From the IMG/VR virus record IMGVR_UViG_3300008116_000018: a DNA stretch of 64,000 bases; one strand, given 5' to 3'. This document shows, one piece after another, positions 11,751 to 18,896 of this stretch. The DNA comes from a virus. The translations under genes and the position numbers were made by a program. The notes under the pieces are model-generated. The model worked only from the letters and a program-made list of their open reading frames with translations. It searched no databases and was not told the origin of the DNA. Numbering within the stretch: the first letter of the stretch is position 1; each line of letters opens with the position of its first letter.

Positions 11751-11825
11751 TGGTGGGCTGACTAGGAATTGAACCTAGACTCAATGAATTATGAGTTCAC
11801 TGCTTTACCATTAAGCTATCAGCCC
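11751..11825 (-). tRNA. tRNA-Ile2/Met(CAT)
   Basis: cloverleaf, loop CTCATAA, encoded CCA; overlaps the last 15 nt of hldD. Confidence 0.9.
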
Positions 11826-12584
11826 GTTTACTTTACTCATGTCTGCACGTGTATATTCTTGATAACTGTTTTTCAAATTATCTGGCATTGGAATTTCTAC
11901 AATATCAGCTTTATGCTTATCTGCAATTTCCTCAGCAACATCTAAAAAACTTTTTGTCTCACCTGTTCCAATGTTAAAAACACCAGACTCTTTACAATCT
12001 AAGAACTTCAAATGATATTGTATCACACTTTCTACAGGAATGAAATCCCTGAAATATTTGTCACTACCATGGAAGACTTTAATCTTGCCAGTTTCTTTAG
12101 CTTGTTTGGCAAACTGAGTTTGTGGACTTGCTTGATTGCCCTTATGCTCTTCACCAGAACCATACACATTAAAGTATCTAAAACCTTGTACAATTGATCC
12201 GCATGGATGTTTACGCACATGACGTTCAAACAAATACTTCGACCATGCATATGGTGTTCTTGGGTCTAATGGCGACTCTTCGGTAAACTCTTGATTCAAA
12301 CCATATACACTCGCTGAACTTGAGTATTGAAAATTAACACCAAACATCTTACATGCATCATACAGTTGAATGCTGAAATCTAAATTTTGTGTTAAAACTT
12401 TTTCAATGTCTTTCTCTGTTGTTGCACTGATTGCGCCAATGTGAATAACCCAATCTTGTTCCATAACACTTGGTAATTGTTTATCGCCCCATTCATACGT
12501 ATCAACAGAATGTCCTGCATTCTCTAATGCAGTAAGCATATGACTACCGATGAAACCTTTGTGACCCGTCAGAAGAATTTTCAT
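11811..12584 (-). CDS. hldD: ADP-L-glycero-D-manno-heptose 6-epimerase-like SDR
   Basis: TGHKGFIG, SSASVYG, YAWSK, GFRYFNVYG, RDFI, YQEYTRAD. Confidence 0.85.
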   Translation of the reverse strand: MKILLTGHKGFIGSHMLTALENAGHSVDTYEWGDKQLPSVMEQDWVIHIGAISATTEKDIEKVLTQNLDFSIQLYDACKMFGVNFQYSSSASVYGLNQEFTEESPLDPRTPYAWSKYLFERHVRKHPCGSIVQGFRYFNVYGSGEEHKGNQASPQTQFAKQAKETGKIKVFHGSDKYFRDFIPVESVIQYHLKFLDCKESGVFNIGTGETKSFLDVAEEIADKHKADIVEIPMPDNLKNSYQEYTRADMSKVNGLIA

Positions 12585-12937
12585 TTCTGAGAATCTCCAG
12601 GAAGAACTCTATAATTGTCTTCAACGGAATCTGGAGTAGACACTTCAATGATTGTGCCTTCTTCTAAGCAAATCACTTGATGTGGTTCTAGTGGCTCATT
12701 GCGCCAAACGTCACCCTCATTCAGAATTGTGTTACGCATACTAGCATCTTTAGTCTGAATGTACTTAACTTCAAACTTGCCATTCAAGACATACCATGTT
12801 TCATCTTTGTGTGCATGAAAGTGCATACTGAATTTTGCGCCTGTGTTAAACTTCAACAGCTTACCGCAATACTTATCATTGGTTGCAAAAATGAATTCGT
12901 GCCCCCAACCTTTTTCAACAAAGCCTTCTAATCTCAT
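12581..12937 (-). CDS. cupin sugar-isomerase-like protein
   Basis: KGWGHE, SMHFH...KDETWYV, IIEVSTP...DNYR. Confidence 0.8.
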   Translation of the reverse strand: MRLEGFVEKGWGHEFIFATNDKYCGKLLKFNTGAKFSMHFHAHKDETWYVLNGKFEVKYIQTKDASMRNTILNEGDVWRNEPLEPHQVICLEEGTIIEVSTPDSVEDNYRVLPGDSQK

Positions 12938-13725
12938 TGTATCTCCTTTAGTGTGGGTGCATAATTACCCACATGCTGTACTGTAATTGACGATGCTTTA
13001 TTTGCAAATTTGATTGCATCATCAATGCTATTCGTCACAAGATATTGATAAGCTAATGCGGCTAAGAATGTATCGCCTGCACCACACACATCAAGAACAT
13101 CAACTTTTTTTGTTGGGTAATTTGTATTGACATGTTCACTACGTAGCATTGCGCCATCGGCACCCAATGTTACAATCATATCCCATGCATATGACTCAGC
13201 CGCTTCAAATTCTTTTTCGTTGATTTTAACAAAAGCACCATTGAATGCTTCTAAGTTTCTTTTCTTCGTATCGATAAAAACTGGTCCATTAAAATCGTGA
13301 ATCAGATTTTGGATATGCTCATAAGTTAAAAAGCCTTTGTTGTAATCAGATATAACAACAGCATCATAACCTTCGGTATCTACAATTCCATTCCACGGCT
13401 CTATCTTTGGCTCTTCATCTATTCTGACGATTTGATATCCAGACTTTTCGTCTATGATTCTAGTCTTTGTGATTCTTGGTTCGCCATTGACACCTGCCGC
13501 TTGATTTGAAATTATCGTTGTGTCACAGCCGAGTTTGTACAGATTGCTATGGACATTTCGTGCCATACCAAGTCTGGTTTCTTTTCGTGTTAGTTTGATT
13601 ACGGGAATTGGTGCTTCTGGACTCAATCTGTCGATTGTTCCATATTGATAAACATCTATGCAAGAATCACCGAGTAGCAATATCTTGAATTTTGTTTGTG
13701 GTTGAGTACTGTTCAAGTCTGTCAT
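12934..13725 (-). CDS. hldE: heptose-7-phosphate kinase (HldE domain I, PfkB family)
   Basis: RLSPEAPIPV, SDYNKG, DVCGAGDTF. Confidence 0.88.
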   Translation of the reverse strand: MTDLNSTQPQTKFKILLLGDSCIDVYQYGTIDRLSPEAPIPVIKLTRKETRLGMARNVHSNLYKLGCDTTIISNQAAGVNGEPRITKTRIIDEKSGYQIVRIDEEPKIEPWNGIVDTEGYDAVVISDYNKGFLTYEHIQNLIHDFNGPVFIDTKKRNLEAFNGAFVKINEKEFEAAESYAWDMIVTLGADGAMLRSEHVNTNYPTKKVDVLDVCGAGDTFLAALAYQYLVTNSIDDAIKFANKASSITVQHVGNYAPTLKEIQ

Positions 13726-14068
13726 AAAATTTAATTTCTTTACAGAATTCGGCACCAATGATCGGTGTGTTTCTGTAGTCACTTCCTTTAACCATTATAT
13801 CAGGCTTATAGTCACGAATCAAGTTTATCAATTCTTCATCGGTATCAAACACATCTACTCTATCTACGTATTTAAGTGCGAATAATAATGATGTACGTTC
13901 ATACTCGGTATTGATTGGTCTATCTGCACCTTTTAATTCTTTGATGCGTCTGTCGCTATCAGTAAGCACGTACACGTATGCGCTAGGATAAGATTTTGCA
14001 TACTGCAATAATCGCAAGTGTCCTAGATGTACAATATCAAATGATCCGTTTACTATAATTTTCATCAT
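13667..14068 (-). CDS. heptose-1-phosphate adenylyltransferase (HldE domain II)
   Basis: NGSFDIVHLGH, LKGADRPIN, VKGSDY, YSTT. Confidence 0.88.
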   Translation of the reverse strand: MMKIIVNGSFDIVHLGHLRLLQYAKSYPSAYVYVLTDSDRRIKELKGADRPINTEYERTSLLFALKYVDRVDVFDTDEELINLIRDYKPDIMVKGSDYRNTPIIGAEFCKEIKFYDRLEQYSTTNKIQDIATR

Positions 14069-14079
14069 ACATTTATATA

Positions 14080-14166
14080 TGGTGCGAGTAGCCGGACTCG
14101 AACCGGCACACCTTTTAAAGCGAGAGATTTTAAGTCTCTTGTGTCTACCAATTTCACCATACTCGC
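14080..14166 (-). tRNA. tRNA-Leu(TAA)
   Basis: cloverleaf with long variable arm, CCA. Confidence 0.95.
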
Positions 14167-14170
14167 TAAC

Positions 14171-14245
14171 TGGTCCGGCGTGAGGGAATCGAACCCCCAT
14201 AATGACTTTAGAAGAATCATGTCCTATCCGTTGAACGAACGCCAG
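14171..14245 (-). tRNA. tRNA-Arg(TCT)
   Basis: loop CTTCTAA, CCA. Confidence 0.93.
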
Positions 14246-14264
14246 AATTAATTTCTATACACGT

Positions 14265-14293
14265 AGTATAGTCTACATTTTCTATCTTGTCAA
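14265..14293 (-). promoter_or_regulatory. sigma70 promoter inside tRNA array
   Basis: TTGACA-17-TATACT. Confidence 0.75.
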
Positions 14294-14294
14294 G

Positions 14295-14368
14295 TGGAGC
14301 GGGGTAAGAGAATCGAACTCTCAGCATTAGCTTGGAAGGCTAAGGTATTACCACTATACGAACCCCGC
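14295..14368 (-). tRNA. tRNA-Gly(TCC)
   Basis: loop CTTCCAA, U73, CCA. Confidence 0.95.
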
Positions 14369-14375
14369 ATTTTTT

Positions 14376-14449
14376 TGGCTACCCACCAGGGACTCGAACC
14401 CCGACCAACGGTTTTGGAGACCGTGATGCTGCCATTACACCAGTGAGTA
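14376..14449 (-). tRNA. tRNA-Trp(CCA)
   Basis: loop CTCCAAA, CCA. Confidence 0.93.
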
Positions 14450-14450
14450 A

Positions 14451-14753
14451 TTATTTGTTTAATTGTCTGAACTTAACTTCTTTGGTTTCTTCATTGTACT
14501 TATGAATTGCATCATACTCATCATCATACAATCCTAATTCTTCATTAGCAGTATGTAACTTGTCTAACGCATCTTGGCGTTTCTTATTGAATGCTTCATA
14601 GCCTTCTTTGGTTCCCAATTCATATCCTTTATCGGAATGAATTTCTTCAGCCGATTTGATATTCTTTTTAAAGATGGCATCAAATCGATTTGCGTATTCT
14701 TCCTGACTTACGCTAAATGGACGTGGTGCGCTTCCTTTTCCACCATCACTCAT
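14451..14753 (-). CDS. hypothetical protein
   Basis: MSDGGKGSAPRPFSV N-terminus common in T4-like phages. Confidence 0.7.
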   Translation of the reverse strand: MSDGGKGSAPRPFSVSQEEYANRFDAIFKKNIKSAEEIHSDKGYELGTKEGYEAFNKKRQDALDKLHTANEELGLYDDEYDAIHKYNEETKEVKFRQLNK

Positions 14754-15196
14754 AAAATCACCCTATGATATTCGTAGTTAACTGTATCGTCATTCTCTCT
14801 AAAAACAACTGCACCATTACGCATATGAAAACGTTTAGCCATTTCAGTCTTAGGACTCAGCGTAACGTATCTTTGAATCTCTGGTTTGTTTTCTTTGATG
14901 TGTTTAACAGCATCAAAAATTAATGTGCGACCTGCACCTGGAGCATAACTCCAAATGGTATAAAATATTGCAACAATCGGTTCAGATGAAATCTGAAACA
15001 ATTCAGTTTCTTTTGTTGGAATTTCTGTTTGATAACTTACGCATGTGATTGCTTTCACTTGTTCATTTTCGTCACGTAACACAAAGATATCTTTGTTGTC
15101 ACCAACTCTGTCAACATGTGGAATATGAGGACGCACAGGGTCTTCACTTAACATACTCATTACACTATCAGTAAACGATTTTATTAGATATAACAT
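14750..15196 (-). CDS. GNAT-fold protein resembling the malonyl-CoA decarboxylase catalytic domain
   Basis: AIFYTIW...GAGRTLI...YVTLSP...AKRFHMRNGA parallels MCD motifs AVFYSI/FVTLSP/RFHLGNGA. Confidence 0.6.
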   Translation of the reverse strand: MLYLIKSFTDSVMSMLSEDPVRPHIPHVDRVGDNKDIFVLRDENEQVKAITCVSYQTEIPTKETELFQISSEPIVAIFYTIWSYAPGAGRTLIFDAVKHIKENKPEIQRYVTLSPKTEMAKRFHMRNGAVVFRENDDTVNYEYHRVIL

Positions 15197-15217
15197 TCTA
15201 TACTTTCATTTCTTATA

Positions 15218-15292
15218 TGGTGGAGAATAAGAGATTCGAACTCTTGACTATTGCTTGCAAAGCAATTGCGTTCCCAATTACGCCAATCCCCC
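15218..15292 (-). tRNA. tRNA-Ala(TGC)
   Basis: loop TTTGCAA, G3:U70, CCA. Confidence 0.93.
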
Positions 15293-15303
15293 ATTATTAT
15301 ATT

Positions 15304-15380
<77 letters not shown>

Positions 15381-15390
15381 ATATTTATAC

Positions 15391-15464
15391 TGGTGCCCCA
15401 TGACAGAATCGAACTGCCGTAACCTGATTACAAAACAGGTGTAATGCCATTATACTAATAGGGC
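15391..15464 (-). tRNA. tRNA-Thr(TGT)
   Basis: loop TTTGTAA, CCA. Confidence 0.92.
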
Positions 15465-15470
15465 TAAAAC

Positions 15471-16214
15471 TTAAATTATCTTCTCCATTATATTCTTTGC
15501 TAAGTTATCCACATCGGCTCTTGTTGTGCCTCCGAGAATAACAATAGCATACTGTTCACCATTCTTATGTACGATCATCACAAGACACTTACCAGCCGCA
15601 TTCGTTGTGCCAGTTTTAGATACTTCAATGATATCATATTTGTTCATCAACTTCACGTTAGTGTTATTGACTGGAATGTGTTTCTCTCTATTCTTCTTAT
15701 CTACGACTTTCAAATCGTATCTACTCAATGCAGATATATCACGTATCTTATCATGCCTGTACGCATCTGTCAACATGATAACTAAATCTTTTGCGGTACT
15801 AATGTTCTTTGCACTCAGACCAGATACATCATCAAATTTTGTATCGTACATTTGAAGCATAATTGCACGTTTATTCATTTGATAAACTGTCCACAATTTA
15901 CCACCCATGCTTTCTGCTAATGCTTCTGCGGCTCTGTTGTCACTTTTGACTAACATTAAATTCAACAATTCTTCTCTAGTGAATTTCTTGTGTGAATAGA
16001 ACATTCCTTTATATGGAACTTTCTCATCCAATGAAACTCCACTCTCAAGTAACACCAATGCAGTCATCAGTTTCGTAATGCTTGCTATTGGTCTCATTTT
16101 ATCAATTTCAGCATCAACAATCGGATATTGTTTTGTGATGTTGTATGCGTAAACTGTAATAGCATTAGCACTCAAACAAGTCAATAGGATTAGAGATAAG
16201 ATTATTTTTTTCAT
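15471..16214 (-). CDS. D-alanyl-D-alanine peptidase, family S11 (PBP7-like)
   Basis: signal peptide; ASITKLMT (SxxK), SDN (SxN), KTG. Confidence 0.92.
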   Translation of the reverse strand: MKKIILSLILLTCLSANAITVYAYNITKQYPIVDAEIDKMRPIASITKLMTALVLLESGVSLDEKVPYKGMFYSHKKFTREELLNLMLVKSDNRAAEALAESMGGKLWTVYQMNKRAIMLQMYDTKFDDVSGLSAKNISTAKDLVIMLTDAYRHDKIRDISALSRYDLKVVDKKNREKHIPVNNTNVKLMNKYDIIEVSKTGTTNAAGKCLVMIVHKNGEQYAIVILGGTTRADVDNLAKNIMEKII

Positions 16215-16228
16215 ATTCTTCTTTGTAA

Positions 16229-16307
16229 TGGCTCCGAGTAAGAGGATCGAACTCTTCTAACCAGTGATTAACAGTCACGCCCATGCACCTTGCTCGGGTT
16301 TCTCGGA
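16229..16307 (-). tRNA. tRNA-Asn(GTT), atypical
   Basis: loop CTGTTAA, G73, CCA; A7:A66 mismatch, A8, enlarged D-loop. Confidence 0.8.
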
Positions 16308-16314
16308 ATAAAAT

Positions 16315-16388
16315 TGGAAGCGGGTGTTGGATTCGAACCAACGATGCACCTGGCTTATGAGACCGGTGTGGTGACCGCCCTACCCGCT
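16315..16388 (-). tRNA. atypical tRNA-like RNA with CAT anticodon
   Basis: perfect acceptor and T arms, CCA; reduced D-arm; bulged anticodon stem. Confidence 0.75.
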
Positions 16389-16401
16389 ATATTATATATC
16401 T

Positions 16402-16478
16402 TGGAGTGAGTGACAGGACTCGAACCTGCATAGAACGGATTTGCAATCCGTAGCCTAACCATTCAGCGGCACACTCAC
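16402..16478 (-). tRNA. tRNA-Cys(GCA)
   Basis: loop TTGCAAA, U73, CCA. Confidence 0.92.
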
Positions 16479-16487
16479 ATAAAAACT

Positions 16488-16562
16488 TGGCGATGCGTGG
16501 GAGAATCGAACTCCCGTAAGCGGATAGACAATCCGCAGTAATAACCTCTATACGAACGCACC
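16488..16562 (-). tRNA. tRNA-Asp(GTC)
   Basis: loop TTGTCTA, G73, CCA. Confidence 0.92.
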
Positions 16563-16571
16563 TAAAAAACT

Positions 16572-16656
16572 TGGTGGAGACAGTAAGATTCGAACCTACT
16601 CACCCGAAAGAACAGATTTACAGTCTGCCGCAACTCTCCAACTTTGCCGTATCTCC
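16572..16656 (-). tRNA. tRNA-Tyr(GTA)
   Basis: loop CTGTAAA, long variable arm, CCA. Confidence 0.93.
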
Positions 16657-16671
16657 AAAATACTAAACTCA

Positions 16672-16747
16672 TGGTACACGATAGGGGAATCGAACCCCTC
16701 TTCCCGCCGTGAAAGGGCGGTGTCCTAAACCGATAGACGAATCGTGC
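16672..16747 (-). tRNA. tRNA-Glu(TTC)
   Basis: loop CTTTCAC, CCA. Confidence 0.95.
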
Positions 16748-16770
16748 ATACTTTTTTAATCTATGAATAG

Positions 16771-16799
16771 AGTATAACACTCTAAACATTTTCTGTCAA
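16771..16799 (-). promoter_or_regulatory. sigma70 promoter inside tRNA array
   Basis: TTGACA-17-TATACT with extended -10 TG. Confidence 0.78.
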
Positions 16800-16808
16800 C
16801 AACATTTT

Positions 16809-16896
16809 TGGCAGAGAGTATGAGATTCGAACTCATGCACCGCTTTCGCAATGACAGTTTAGCAAACTGCTGGTTTAACCACTCACCCAACTCTCT
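16809..16896 (-). tRNA. tRNA-Ser(GCT)
   Basis: loop TTGCTAA, long variable arm, G73. Confidence 0.93.
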
Positions 16897-16903
16897 ATAA
16901 TTT

Positions 16904-16993
16904 TGGCGGAAGCGGTGAGATTCGAACTCACGGAACATTTCTGTTCGACAGTTTTCAAGACTGTTGCCATAAACCAGACTCGACCACACTTCC
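16904..16993 (-). tRNA. tRNA-Ser(TGA)
   Basis: loop CTTGAAA, long variable arm. Confidence 0.95.
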
Positions 16994-16999
16994 ATAACT

Positions 17000-17074
17000 T
17001 GGTGCGCCCTGAGAGAATCGAACTCCCACTCGTAGGTTCGTAGCCTACTGTAATATCCATTTTACTAAAGGCGC
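17000..17074 (-). tRNA. tRNA-Arg(ACG)
   Basis: loop CTACGAA, CCA. Confidence 0.95.
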
Positions 17075-17085
17075 ATAAAAACATT

Positions 17086-17162
17086 TGGTGCCCTCTCTCA
17101 GATTCGAACTGAGACTTTACGGCTTCTAAGACCGTCCTCTCTACCAATTGGAGTAAGAGGGC
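17086..17162 (-). tRNA. tRNA-Leu(TAG), short variable loop
   Basis: loop CTTAGAA; 5-nt variable region AAAGT. Confidence 0.9.
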
Positions 17163-17165
17163 ACT

Positions 17166-17239
17166 TGGTTCCCAGAGAAAGAATTGAACTTTCGATAATC
17201 GCTTATCAAGCGACCGTTATACCATTTAACTATCCGGGA
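17166..17239 (-). tRNA. tRNA-Ile(GAT)
   Basis: loop TTGATAA, CCA. Confidence 0.9.
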
Positions 17240-17248
17240 CTATCTTGT

Positions 17249-17323
17249 TGGTACCTTGTGACGGGATTGAACCGCCGACCTTCTCCTTGTAAGGGAGACA
17301 CTCTACCGCTGAGTTAACAAGGC
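17249..17323 (-). tRNA. tRNA-Val(TAC)
   Basis: loop CTTACAA, CCA. Confidence 0.95.
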
Positions 17324-17332
17324 AATTTTCTT

Positions 17333-17408
17333 TGGGGTGACCTATGGGATTTGAACCCATCCTATCGGAATCACAATCCGAGGTGCTGACCGCTAACACT
17401 AAGGTCAC
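17333..17408 (-). tRNA. tRNA-His(GTG)
   Basis: loop TTGTGAT, C73; genomic -1 base is T. Confidence 0.93.
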
Positions 17409-17420
17409 ACCAAAGAAAAC

Positions 17421-17495
17421 TGGTAGGGGCACCGAGAATCGAACTCGGATTTACTGGTTAAAAGCCAGCTACTCTAGCCGTTGAGTTATACCCCC
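17421..17495 (-). tRNA. tRNA-Lys(TTT)
   Basis: loop CTTTTAA, CCA. Confidence 0.94.
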
Positions 17496-17499
17496 AAAT

Positions 17500-17574
17500 T
17501 GGTGGTGACAGTTGGATTTGAACCAACGACCGATTGCGTATGAAGCAATTGCACTACCGCTGTGCTATGTCACC
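17500..17574 (-). tRNA. tRNA-Met(CAT)
   Basis: loop TTCATAC, CCA. Confidence 0.9.
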
Positions 17575-17577
17575 ATT

Positions 17578-17651
17578 TGGCAGGGGATACAAGAATCGAA
17601 CTTGTGCCAACGGAATCAAAATCCGTTGTGCTACCATTACACTAATCCCCA
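17578..17651 (-). tRNA. tRNA-Gln(TTG)
   Basis: loop TTTTGAT, G73, U1:U72 mismatch. Confidence 0.93.
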
Positions 17652-17718: not shown

Positions 17719-17780
17719 AGTATAACACAATCGGAAAGACTGTCAACAACTATTTTCATAGATGTTGTTTTCATACAACA
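17719..17780 (-). promoter_or_regulatory. palindrome-associated sigma70 promoter at head of tRNA array
   Basis: TTGACA-16-TATACT; palindrome 17763-17780. Confidence 0.85.
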
Positions 17781-17781
17781 C

Positions 17782-17818
17782 AAAGAAAAACCCCCTAGAG
17801 TTTTCAGTCTCTAGGGGG
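17782..17818 (-). terminator. intrinsic terminator (attenuator)
   Basis: CCCCCTAGAG-8 nt-CTCTAGGGGG perfect 10-bp stem followed by TTTTTCTTT. Confidence 0.92.
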
Positions 17819-17870
17819 CTTGTCTTTGTATTCTCTTTGGACTTATGGTCCTCAGGTATAACAAGCCCCC
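17814..17870 (-). promoter_or_regulatory. antiterminator helix
   Basis: GGGGGCTTGT (17870-17861) is perfectly complementary to ACAAGCCCCC (17823-17814), which includes the 5 C at the terminator stem base. Confidence 0.8.
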
Positions 17871-17969: not shown

Positions 17970-18251
17970 TTAGTTTACTGTTTCTTCGTTAAAAATATTA
18001 GACCATTTCTGGAGTTTTGCTTTCTTGTTTGCGGATGCTCTATCTACTTCATCAATGCTAATGATACCTGTTTCAATCATCAACTGAATCATACAAAATA
18101 AATCACCAACTTCTTCTGTCAATCGTTCACGATTAGATGCACCATTGTGTTCACCATCTAAACCAAATCTAAAAACTTTACTGATTGCCTGTGTCACTTC
18201 GGCACATTCTTCTTGTGCAATGAGTAAAACTTCTTTTTCAACACTATTCAT
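17970..18251 (-). CDS. MazG-like all-alpha NTP pyrophosphohydrolase
   Basis: EECAEV...SK...EEVGDL motifs. Confidence 0.85.
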   Translation of the reverse strand: MNSVEKEVLLIAQEECAEVTQAISKVFRFGLDGEHNGASNRERLTEEVGDLFCMIQLMIETGIISIDEVDRASANKKAKLQKWSNIFNEETVN

Positions 18252-18274
18252 TATCTAACCTTTTCTCAATACAT

Positions 18275-18480
18275 AAAATGCTCTGCGAATCTCGGCGGTA
18301 ATTATAGAACATCAAGATATGACGCTATCATACCCATCACACGTTCCTTCCACCCGCTCCCCGACAGATTCCGTTCTCGCATTGCCAGCGGCCTTTCGGT
18401 TTAAAGACTACCACCCGTAGCTGTCACACTACTTCTCATCCTGTGGGTCACAGTATCCAGAGACTAACCCGGAACGTTCT
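18275..18480 (-). ncRNA. candidate structured ncRNA (~205 nt)
   Basis: ORF-free, GC-richer than flanks; paired termini and at least six hairpins/helices. Confidence 0.7.
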
Positions 18481-18783
18481 TTACATATTCTGAATGAATT
18501 GCTTCACCAAGAATCGTTTCACTTCCCATGCGTTAGTCATTCGCACAGTCTTTTCTTTACTATTCAATCTGTATGTAATATATAGCCTTTTTGGAGCAGA
18601 AATTACCACAGCACCAAAAATATTTTTACTGAGTCCAAACGGTATCACATAAGCATCACCGTTGTCAAGTTTTTTCTTGGCATAACCATTAGCACCTTTG
18701 ATCTTATCAAGACCACCAAATCGAACTGTATCTAAAATTTCAACAGCCATCGATTGTCGTGGACCCATACCATCAATATACAT
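18481..18783 (-). CDS. hypothetical protein
   Basis: AAGGAA SD before MYIDGMG. Confidence 0.65.
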   Translation of the reverse strand: MYIDGMGPRQSMAVEILDTVRFGGLDKIKGANGYAKKKLDNGDAYVIPFGLSKNIFGAVVISAPKRLYITYRLNSKEKTVRMTNAWEVKRFLVKQFIQNM

Positions 18784-18896
18784 ATTGTTCCTTATGCTTT
18801 GGTTCTCTCTTACGCTTGTCTTCAACCACACGCATACGATACTTAGGGCTACGCAAGTCCTTCGCTACCATGTTACGTGGTTTTGTTTTCGACAAT

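Follow-up and report, generated by a model that had tools for sequence, protein, structure and literature searches.

The window analysed in this study, a stretch of 64,000 nucleotides of viral DNA, belongs to a distant T4-like aquatic myovirus with genes for a gp41-like helicase, a primase, a ribonucleotide reductase, a family-B DNA polymerase and UvsX, the last being 59% identical to its nearest cultured counterpart. On the minus strand, 228 nt separate the stop codon (18481) of a 116-aa ORF without a family match (18481-18831) from the start (18251) of a MazG-like pyrophosphohydrolase gene (17970-18251; PF03819, 9.4e-6; phrog_4856, 6.6e-25). No ORF longer than 33 aa was found in these 228 nt, and the G+C content of the RNA interval was 0.51-0.57, compared with approximately 0.37 in the flanks. 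The preliminary description had placed a structured non-coding RNA in this ORF-free, GC-richer interval (18275-18480, minus strand), upstream of MazG and the tRNAs, and the placement was right to within 2-3 nt. The family profile matched 18277-18480 of the minus strand over model positions 3-208 (nhmmer, E=6.5e-57). The comparisons described below showed that this interval is a discrete gene for a structured non-coding RNA of approximately 204 nt, consisting of a leader, five 5' hairpins, a long 3' arm and a tail; its extent was set by the nhmmer match, by row 1 of alignment A2 and by two relatives (L005 and L010) lacking the cassette. The stop codon of the 116-aa ORF abuts the RNA, and MazG starts 25 nt past it.

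The window also contains 22 tRNA genes, all downstream of the RNA (11751-17651), the nearest of them at a distance of 625 nt. No promoter or terminator belonging to the RNA itself was found in the window. Without these signals and without an adjacent tRNA, the RNA could here remain on the mRNA of MazG. Between MazG and the first tRNA, at 17719-17746 and 17788-17821, lie a promoter close to consensus (TTGACA, 16 nt, TATACT, with TG) and a strong hairpin resembling a terminator. The tRNA array therefore has its own start, and the RNA of the window is thus not simply part of the tRNA transcript.

The single-sequence minimum-energy fold of the RNA was not better than that of shuffled sequences (z = -0.92), and therefore the window sequence alone is no proof of a structured RNA. 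The proof is comparative, not thermodynamic. The first homologues came from MazG-based loci in IMG/VR, and an invariant 17-mer of the conserved core, GTCGGGRAGCGGGTGGA, served as the search pattern. The 17-mer scan gave at least 119 viral loci, among them contigs of 200-524 kb, and all of those listed were true members; another 39 members, with variant cores, came from a second scan for a 5' motif. With these two independent motifs, more than 220 loci were recovered in uncultured phage contigs, the carriers including T4-like genomes of about 150 kb at one extreme and 524-kb megaphages at the other. The RNA is thus shown to belong to a large, uncatalogued family in uncultured phages. The profile search (an nhmmer profile rather than a covariance model of the whole RNA) found one copy per locus in each of 187 loci. 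No homologue was detected by blastn among GenBank or cultured phages, even at E<=10. Among prokaryote genomes, 119 of the 120 matches to the 17-mer were due to chance in G+C-rich DNA, and the remaining one, on a MAG contig (L305), was a true member. Metagenome contigs also included true members, and the two marine records checked were not among them. The label "lake" or "freshwater" was not taken from ecosystem labels and rests on the preliminary description. The metagenome scan returned no short transcript-like contigs showing the mature ends of the RNA. Member lengths were 174-285 nt, the differences coming from the tip hairpin, which is exchangeable, and from an insertion of about 60 nt that only some members carry. 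Two aberrant copies were also observed: L466 diverges after the first 70 nt, the only part retained, and looks like a decayed copy, and L478 has a normal 5' domain with a much enlarged and divergent 3' arm.

Gathering the homologues and examining their covariation gave very strong support for the structure. In alignment A2 (67 diverse sequences), a model of nine helices and two pseudoknots was counted; 96.4% of the cells paired, against 36-48% when the partners were slid, compensatory changes were present at 29 of 49 pairs, and none of 500 shuffles reached the observed pairing values. Moreover, a mutual-information scan without any prior structure recovered the helices and the kissing loops. 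A larger alignment of 165 unique full-length sequences, core variants included, was used for individual contacts. The RNA folds as a compact knot composed of a 5' domain and a long 3' arm. Beyond the helices already proposed, the alignments revealed that the loops of hairpin 1 and hairpin 3 kiss and that the ACC loop of hairpin 2 forms a pseudoknot with a GGU tract, and they gave covariation proof of the GCGG/CCGC core helix.

The 5' domain begins with the leader AGAACGU (18474-18480; all features of the RNA lie on the minus strand), which in most relatives directly follows the CCA of an upstream tRNA. Hairpin P1h (UCCGG/CUGGA, 18456-18473), with compensatory changes at five of five pairs, is followed by P2h (CUGUG/CACAG, 18441-18453), in which three of five pairs showed compensatory changes and every cell was paired, and, after the purine-rich joiner GAUGAGAA (18433-18440; near-invariant in the A2 conservation line), by P3h (GUAGU/GCUAC, 18417-18432), with compensatory changes at four of five pairs. 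These three correspond to the hairpins TCCGGG/TCTGGA, CTGTG-ACC-CACAG and GTAGT-GTGACA-GCTAC of the preliminary description, all of which were upheld by covariation. Another of its proposals, an imperfect pairing of the two termini, found no support and clashes with P1h, whose first pair covaries. The loop GUC of P1h (18464-18462) kisses the loop GAC of P3h (18425-18423): 88.7% of the cells were paired, compared with 19-69% in slid registers, and none of 500 shuffles scored as high. At the pair 18464-18423, G-C occurred 101 times, A-U 41 times and G-U 11 times, and the loop combinations observed were GUC/GAC, AUCA/UGAU, GUCA/UGAC, GUUA/UGAC and AACG/CGUU.

Downstream of P3h lies the invariant tract GGGUGGU (18410-18416), immediately after which some relatives carry the optional insertion of about 60 nt. 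Its first GGU (18415-18413) pairs with the ACC loop of P2h (18448-18446) to form the pseudoknot PK1. In 165 sequences this pairing changed from A-U to G-C once and from C-G to A-U twice, with zero mismatches, and PK1 is proven. The second GGU may form an equivalent pseudoknot, PK2, with the invariant ACC in the loop of P4h; both sides are invariant, so PK2 is neither supported nor refuted and remains a candidate. P4h itself (GUCUU/AAGGC with the loop UAAACCGA, 18391-18408; compensatory changes at four of five pairs) replaces the CC-GAAA-GG hairpin that had been proposed there. The last hairpin of the domain, P5h (CGC/GCG, 18378-18390), has a conserved 7-nt loop, UGGCAAU, and its pair 168-176 was C-G in 46 sequences and U-A in 21. 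A pseudoknot between CUGGCA of the P5h loop and UGC(C)AG of the tail was rejected, with 63 A.C mismatches at its central pair. Helix P0 (CGU of the leader with ACG of J5/6) had conserved complementarity without compensatory change and was left as a candidate. In addition, the last base of P3h (18417) was observed to correlate with 18401 in the P4h loop (C/A in 126 sequences, A/U in 36), which may reflect a tertiary contact or merely shared ancestry.

The 3' arm is built, in order, of P6, a CG/CG step, the GCGG/CCGC helix, an invariant internal loop, P7 and a variable tip. The three long-range helices that had been suggested from the window alone, GAATCT/AGATTC, GCGG/CCGC and GAACGT/ATGTTC, were each confirmed. 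In P6, the 5' strand GAAUCU (18366-18371) pairs with 18287-18292, and all six pairs showed compensatory changes. The conserved core 5' strand GUCGGGGAGCGGGUGGAA (18348-18365) contributes CG, which pairs with CG at 18293-18294, GCGG (18354-18357), which pairs with CCGC (18295-18298), and GUGGAA, one side of the invariant internal loop; the core 3' strand, AUAAUUA-CCGC-CG, runs on into the 3' strand of P6, AGAUUC (18287-18305). The core pair 202-303 was C-G in 152 sequences, A-U in six and U-A in six, with zero mismatches among 165 sequences, and the adjacent core pair 195-306 also covaries (C-G 157, U-G 3, U-A 3). An alternative core helix, GGUGG/CCGCC, is preferred by single-sequence and alifold folds; it was rejected because of six U.U mismatches exactly where GCGG/CCGC remains paired. 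P7 (GGAACG/UGUUCU, 18306-18347), with compensatory changes at four of six pairs, encloses hairpin P8 (18312-18341). The hairpin GGGTATGAT-AGC-GTCATATCT that had been drawn at this tip is plausible as P8; it is, however, a variable and exchangeable module outside the counted structure, differing in length and sequence among members and missing in L095. The near-invariant tail GCAGAGCA (18279-18286) closes the molecule, and the profile extends 2 nt past it.

These results bear directly on whether the interval encodes an RNA. The long stop-free frames on the antisense strand would be compatible with a small protein gene, a site acting at the DNA level or mere chance. The open antisense frame, however, differs among members, the compensatory changes include G-U pairs that are valid only on the minus strand, and the lengths are spread evenly modulo 3 (60, 56 and 49). 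The coding reading was rejected on the lack of a conserved frame and this spread of lengths, and the absence of an RNA gene is hardly conceivable.

The claim that the RNA lies outside known classes and carries no tRNA, tmRNA or RNase P signatures also stood. Rfam 15 (4227 models) recognized only the 22 tRNAs in the whole window at gathering scores and gave no match to 18100-18650 at E<=10, so that the novelty of the family was not removed by a known one, and ARAGORN called no tmRNA. As regards a tmRNA, furthermore, members do not conserve the AUG of the P5h loop or the UAA of the core, and their lengths are not in frame. The RNase P RNA models gave no match, and the covariation-supported helices include no P4-like pairing. 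No match to Intron_gpI was found, and the flanking tRNAs are complete and of varied identity; the RNA is therefore not an intron. An SRP-like identity was rejected for want of any SRP model match (Rfam, E<=10). Mimicry of rRNA, suggested by a likeness to H69-H71 of 23S rRNA, was rejected, the 8-mers shared with the E. coli rrn operon numbering 16 against 14 for shuffled sequence and the profile finding nothing. When the loci of five relatives were searched with Rfam at E<=1, the sole match on the RNA was to tmRNA_permuted, in L083 (22.7 bits, E=0.93). This match gives a weak hint that the RNA could belong, as a highly diverged member, to one of the known classes (RNase P, tmRNA, SRP, 6S, group I intron or T4 rnaC/rnaD). 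Its score is far under the gathering threshold, it also spans the 3' end of the neighbouring tRNA, and it is presumably driven by the T arm of that tRNA. As nothing else appeared at E<=10, as the complete flanking tRNAs exclude an intron, and as neither the profile nor the family motifs found anything in T4 rnaC/rnaD, the chance that such an origin has been overlooked is very slight.

The distribution of the family showed the RNA gene to be an accessory cassette. Only 10-17 nt lie between the ORF stop and the MazG ribosome-binding site in the near-identical relatives L005 and L010, from which exactly the cassette of about 212 nt is absent, the ribosome-binding site of MazG being unchanged in the relatives without it. 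A complete relative of 150 kb, whose MazG is 96% identical, has no copy anywhere. The RNA is therefore accessory and not needed for the expression of MazG. In L015 and L016, by comparison, the RNA lies 1.7 kb downstream of MazG, abutting a tRNA, rather than before MazG, and a 524-kb phage has two copies in two separate tRNA arrays. Thus none, one or two copies per genome were shown, in many contexts.

This variability weighs against a ligand-binding aptamer, whether it served as a riboswitch controlling MazG or some other downstream gene or as a sponge that soaks up a nucleotide signal. An ORF preceded by a ribosome-binding site does begin 15-30 nt past the tail of the RNA in roughly 30-40 loci; MazG is the commonest such ORF, occurring within 5 kb in 28 of 187 loci, and a pseudoknotted core with invariant internal loops resembles an aptamer. 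However, the downstream neighbours (tRNAs, MazG, a GroES-like gene and others) are unrelated in kind, over half of the copies precede tRNAs, and relatives keep the same MazG ribosome-binding site without the RNA. Because the downstream genes vary, the RNA is not a cis-regulator of one gene. Moreover, no expression platform (no terminator and no pairing with a ribosome-binding site) was found, and no riboswitch family in Rfam matched. We regard an aptamer as decidedly improbable.

The RNA usually lies among tRNA genes. Same-strand tRNAs are present in 162 of 187 loci, within 10 nt in 106 of the 187 and on both sides in 37, and at least ten tRNA types flank the RNA on each side. The next tRNA begins 0-9 nt past the profile end in relatives. 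The median tRNA-tRNA spacer of these loci is 6 nt, and the leader and tail of the RNA occupy this usual spacer; therefore, from hairpin 1 through to the tail, the RNA is arranged as a further tRNA-sized unit of the array. In other loci the RNA follows conserved AT-rich promoter-like boxes or precedes unrelated ORFs such as MazG or a GroES-like gene. No linked partner protein was found, as no protein cluster within 5 kb occurred in more than 21% of the loci.

Several other conserved elements were observed around the RNA. In seven loci (L120, L157, L101, L193, L148, L109 and L436), a conserved AT-rich box, CAUACUGUAUUUAUAAAAG, ends exactly at the first conserved bases of the RNA; it may be a promoter that starts a transcript at the 5' end of the RNA, and its fit to sigma-70 spacing is poor. 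Five loci (L118, L096, L356, L366 and L399) share a conserved G+C-rich stretch (CACAUCGCCUGGACACUUCC...GGUCCUGCAACC...) within the 55 nt that precede the RNA, a region without a called tRNA, and in other loci tRNA-like stretches ending in CCA and missed by ARAGORN lie upstream. Directly after the RNA, a second conserved module of about 90 nt was seen in L083 (1430-1520), in L086, L107, L127, L133 and L179 and in about 15 more loci. Its ends pair (AUAUUGAAGCACA ... UGUGUUUCAAUAU), it is not called as a tRNA by ARAGORN, and it is probably another uncatalogued RNA of tRNA arrays. A third recurrent module, which starts with UUUGUUUUUAUAGUCAAGCAUCGAUAA, lies just downstream of the RNA in L085, L110, L145, L158 and L356; it contains hairpins, and about 160 nt separate its end from the next tRNA.

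In about 74 of the 82 loci with a tRNA no more than 10 nt upstream, the conserved RAACG starts 0-1 nt after the CCA. This start fits self-processing equally well, and hence a cis-acting processing element, possibly a new self-cleaving ribozyme that cuts at its own 5' edge and frees the CCA of the preceding tRNA, has to be weighed. There is no RNase P site at the junction between CCA and RNA, phage ribozymes abutting tRNAs are known (PMC10879173), and the approximately 60 invariant unpaired nucleotides of the RNA would suit a catalytic core. On the other hand, no Rfam model of a self-cleaving ribozyme (HDV-like, hammerhead, twister, hatchet or pistol) matched, which does not exclude a new class; the spacer between CCA and the first conserved base varies by 0-3 nt; a length of 174-285 nt far exceeds that of the known small self-cleavers; and conservation is equal where no tRNA precedes the RNA, as in the window and after the promoter-like AT-rich boxes. 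Such an element is consequently considered unlikely.

Taken together, the explanation that we favour, with a confidence only a little better than even, is that of an accessory, trans-acting stable RNA released by the tRNA-processing enzymes. Expression, ends and stability are all inferred, without transcript data. The RNA would share a transcript with the tRNA/MazG region. Its 5' end would arise when the CCA end of the preceding tRNA is cut free, and its 3' end when RNase P cleaves at the 5' end of the following tRNA; in the window, where the RNA would lie inside an mRNA, endonucleases would be needed for its release. Once released, the RNA may act in trans as a stable, abundant species and presumably binds, through its many unpaired but invariant nucleotides, a partner that is conserved across hosts. 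No such partner has been identified, and the likeliest would be either part of the machinery of translation or of tRNAs or further copies of the RNA. Strongly conserved pseudoknots in RNAs of about 200 nt usually mark ribozymes, aptamers or ribonucleoprotein cores, and phage tRNA genes serve the takeover of translation or the escape from tRNA-targeting defences.

A bolder possibility, to which we assign a rather low probability, is a new class of functional RNA machine acting on tRNAs. It might be a self-cleaving or processing ribozyme that frees tRNA 3' ends, or its GGU tracts might capture the ACCA ends of tRNAs in trans. In the capture version, the GGU tracts would normally be occupied by the RNA's own ACC loops. 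T-box leaders and RNase P are known to capture the ACCA ends of tRNAs.

Returning to the stable trans-acting RNA, its occurrence in hundreds of unrelated phages, among tRNA genes and without a linked protein gene gives the family a wider significance. The partner, once found, could reveal a new phage route to the host translation or tRNA machinery, and the structure model, with its nine helices, one kissing contact and one proven pseudoknot, offers targets for mutate-and-rescue experiments.

Three known systems invite comparison. The HDV-like theta ribozymes of gut phages directly abut tRNAs (PMC10879173), and in both cases one cut could yield the 3' end of a tRNA and the 5' end of the RNA. 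However, theta ribozymes are minimal HDV-like folds, whereas the family RNA is much larger, has a different architecture, matches no HDV family and is also conserved away from tRNAs.

GOLLD and ROOL are RNAs of phages and prophages that often lie beside tRNA islands and form multimeric cages, as seen by cryo-EM (PMC12286853). Like the family RNA, they have many pseudoknots, an unknown function and no known protein partner, and an RNA-only assembly of their kind would be a special case of the trans-acting reading. The shared niche in phages next to tRNA islands (PMC12286853), the very strongly conserved loops and the lack of a linked protein gene speak for it. Nevertheless, the lengths of GOLLD and ROOL run from about 580 nt to over 800 nt, the family RNA is, at approximately 200 nt, three to four times smaller, no Rfam match to either was obtained, and no evidently self-complementary loop was seen; an assembly of this type is therefore quite unlikely.

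The preliminary description had pointed to the stable RNAs of T4 as a possible analogy, and this held for position and failed for sequence. Its further suggestions of a decoy or a ribozyme are conjecture. T4 rnaC (species 1, 139 nt) and rnaD (species 2, 119 nt), whose function is still not known (PMC3014915, PMC9697503), lie at the 3' end of the T4 tRNA cluster. Within it, rnaD starts 1 nt after tRNA-Arg, the same layout as that of the family RNA beside same-strand tRNAs. The profile, run on the T4 region with nhmmer without filters, gave only a junk match (E=15) outside rnaC and rnaD, and six family motifs were absent from both. Moreover, rnaC has a tRNA-like T arm near its 3' end, which the family RNA lacks, and the family RNA is larger than either T4 RNA and is pseudoknotted. 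Identification of the partner of the family RNA might nonetheless illuminate the 50-year-old puzzle of T4 rnaC and rnaD.
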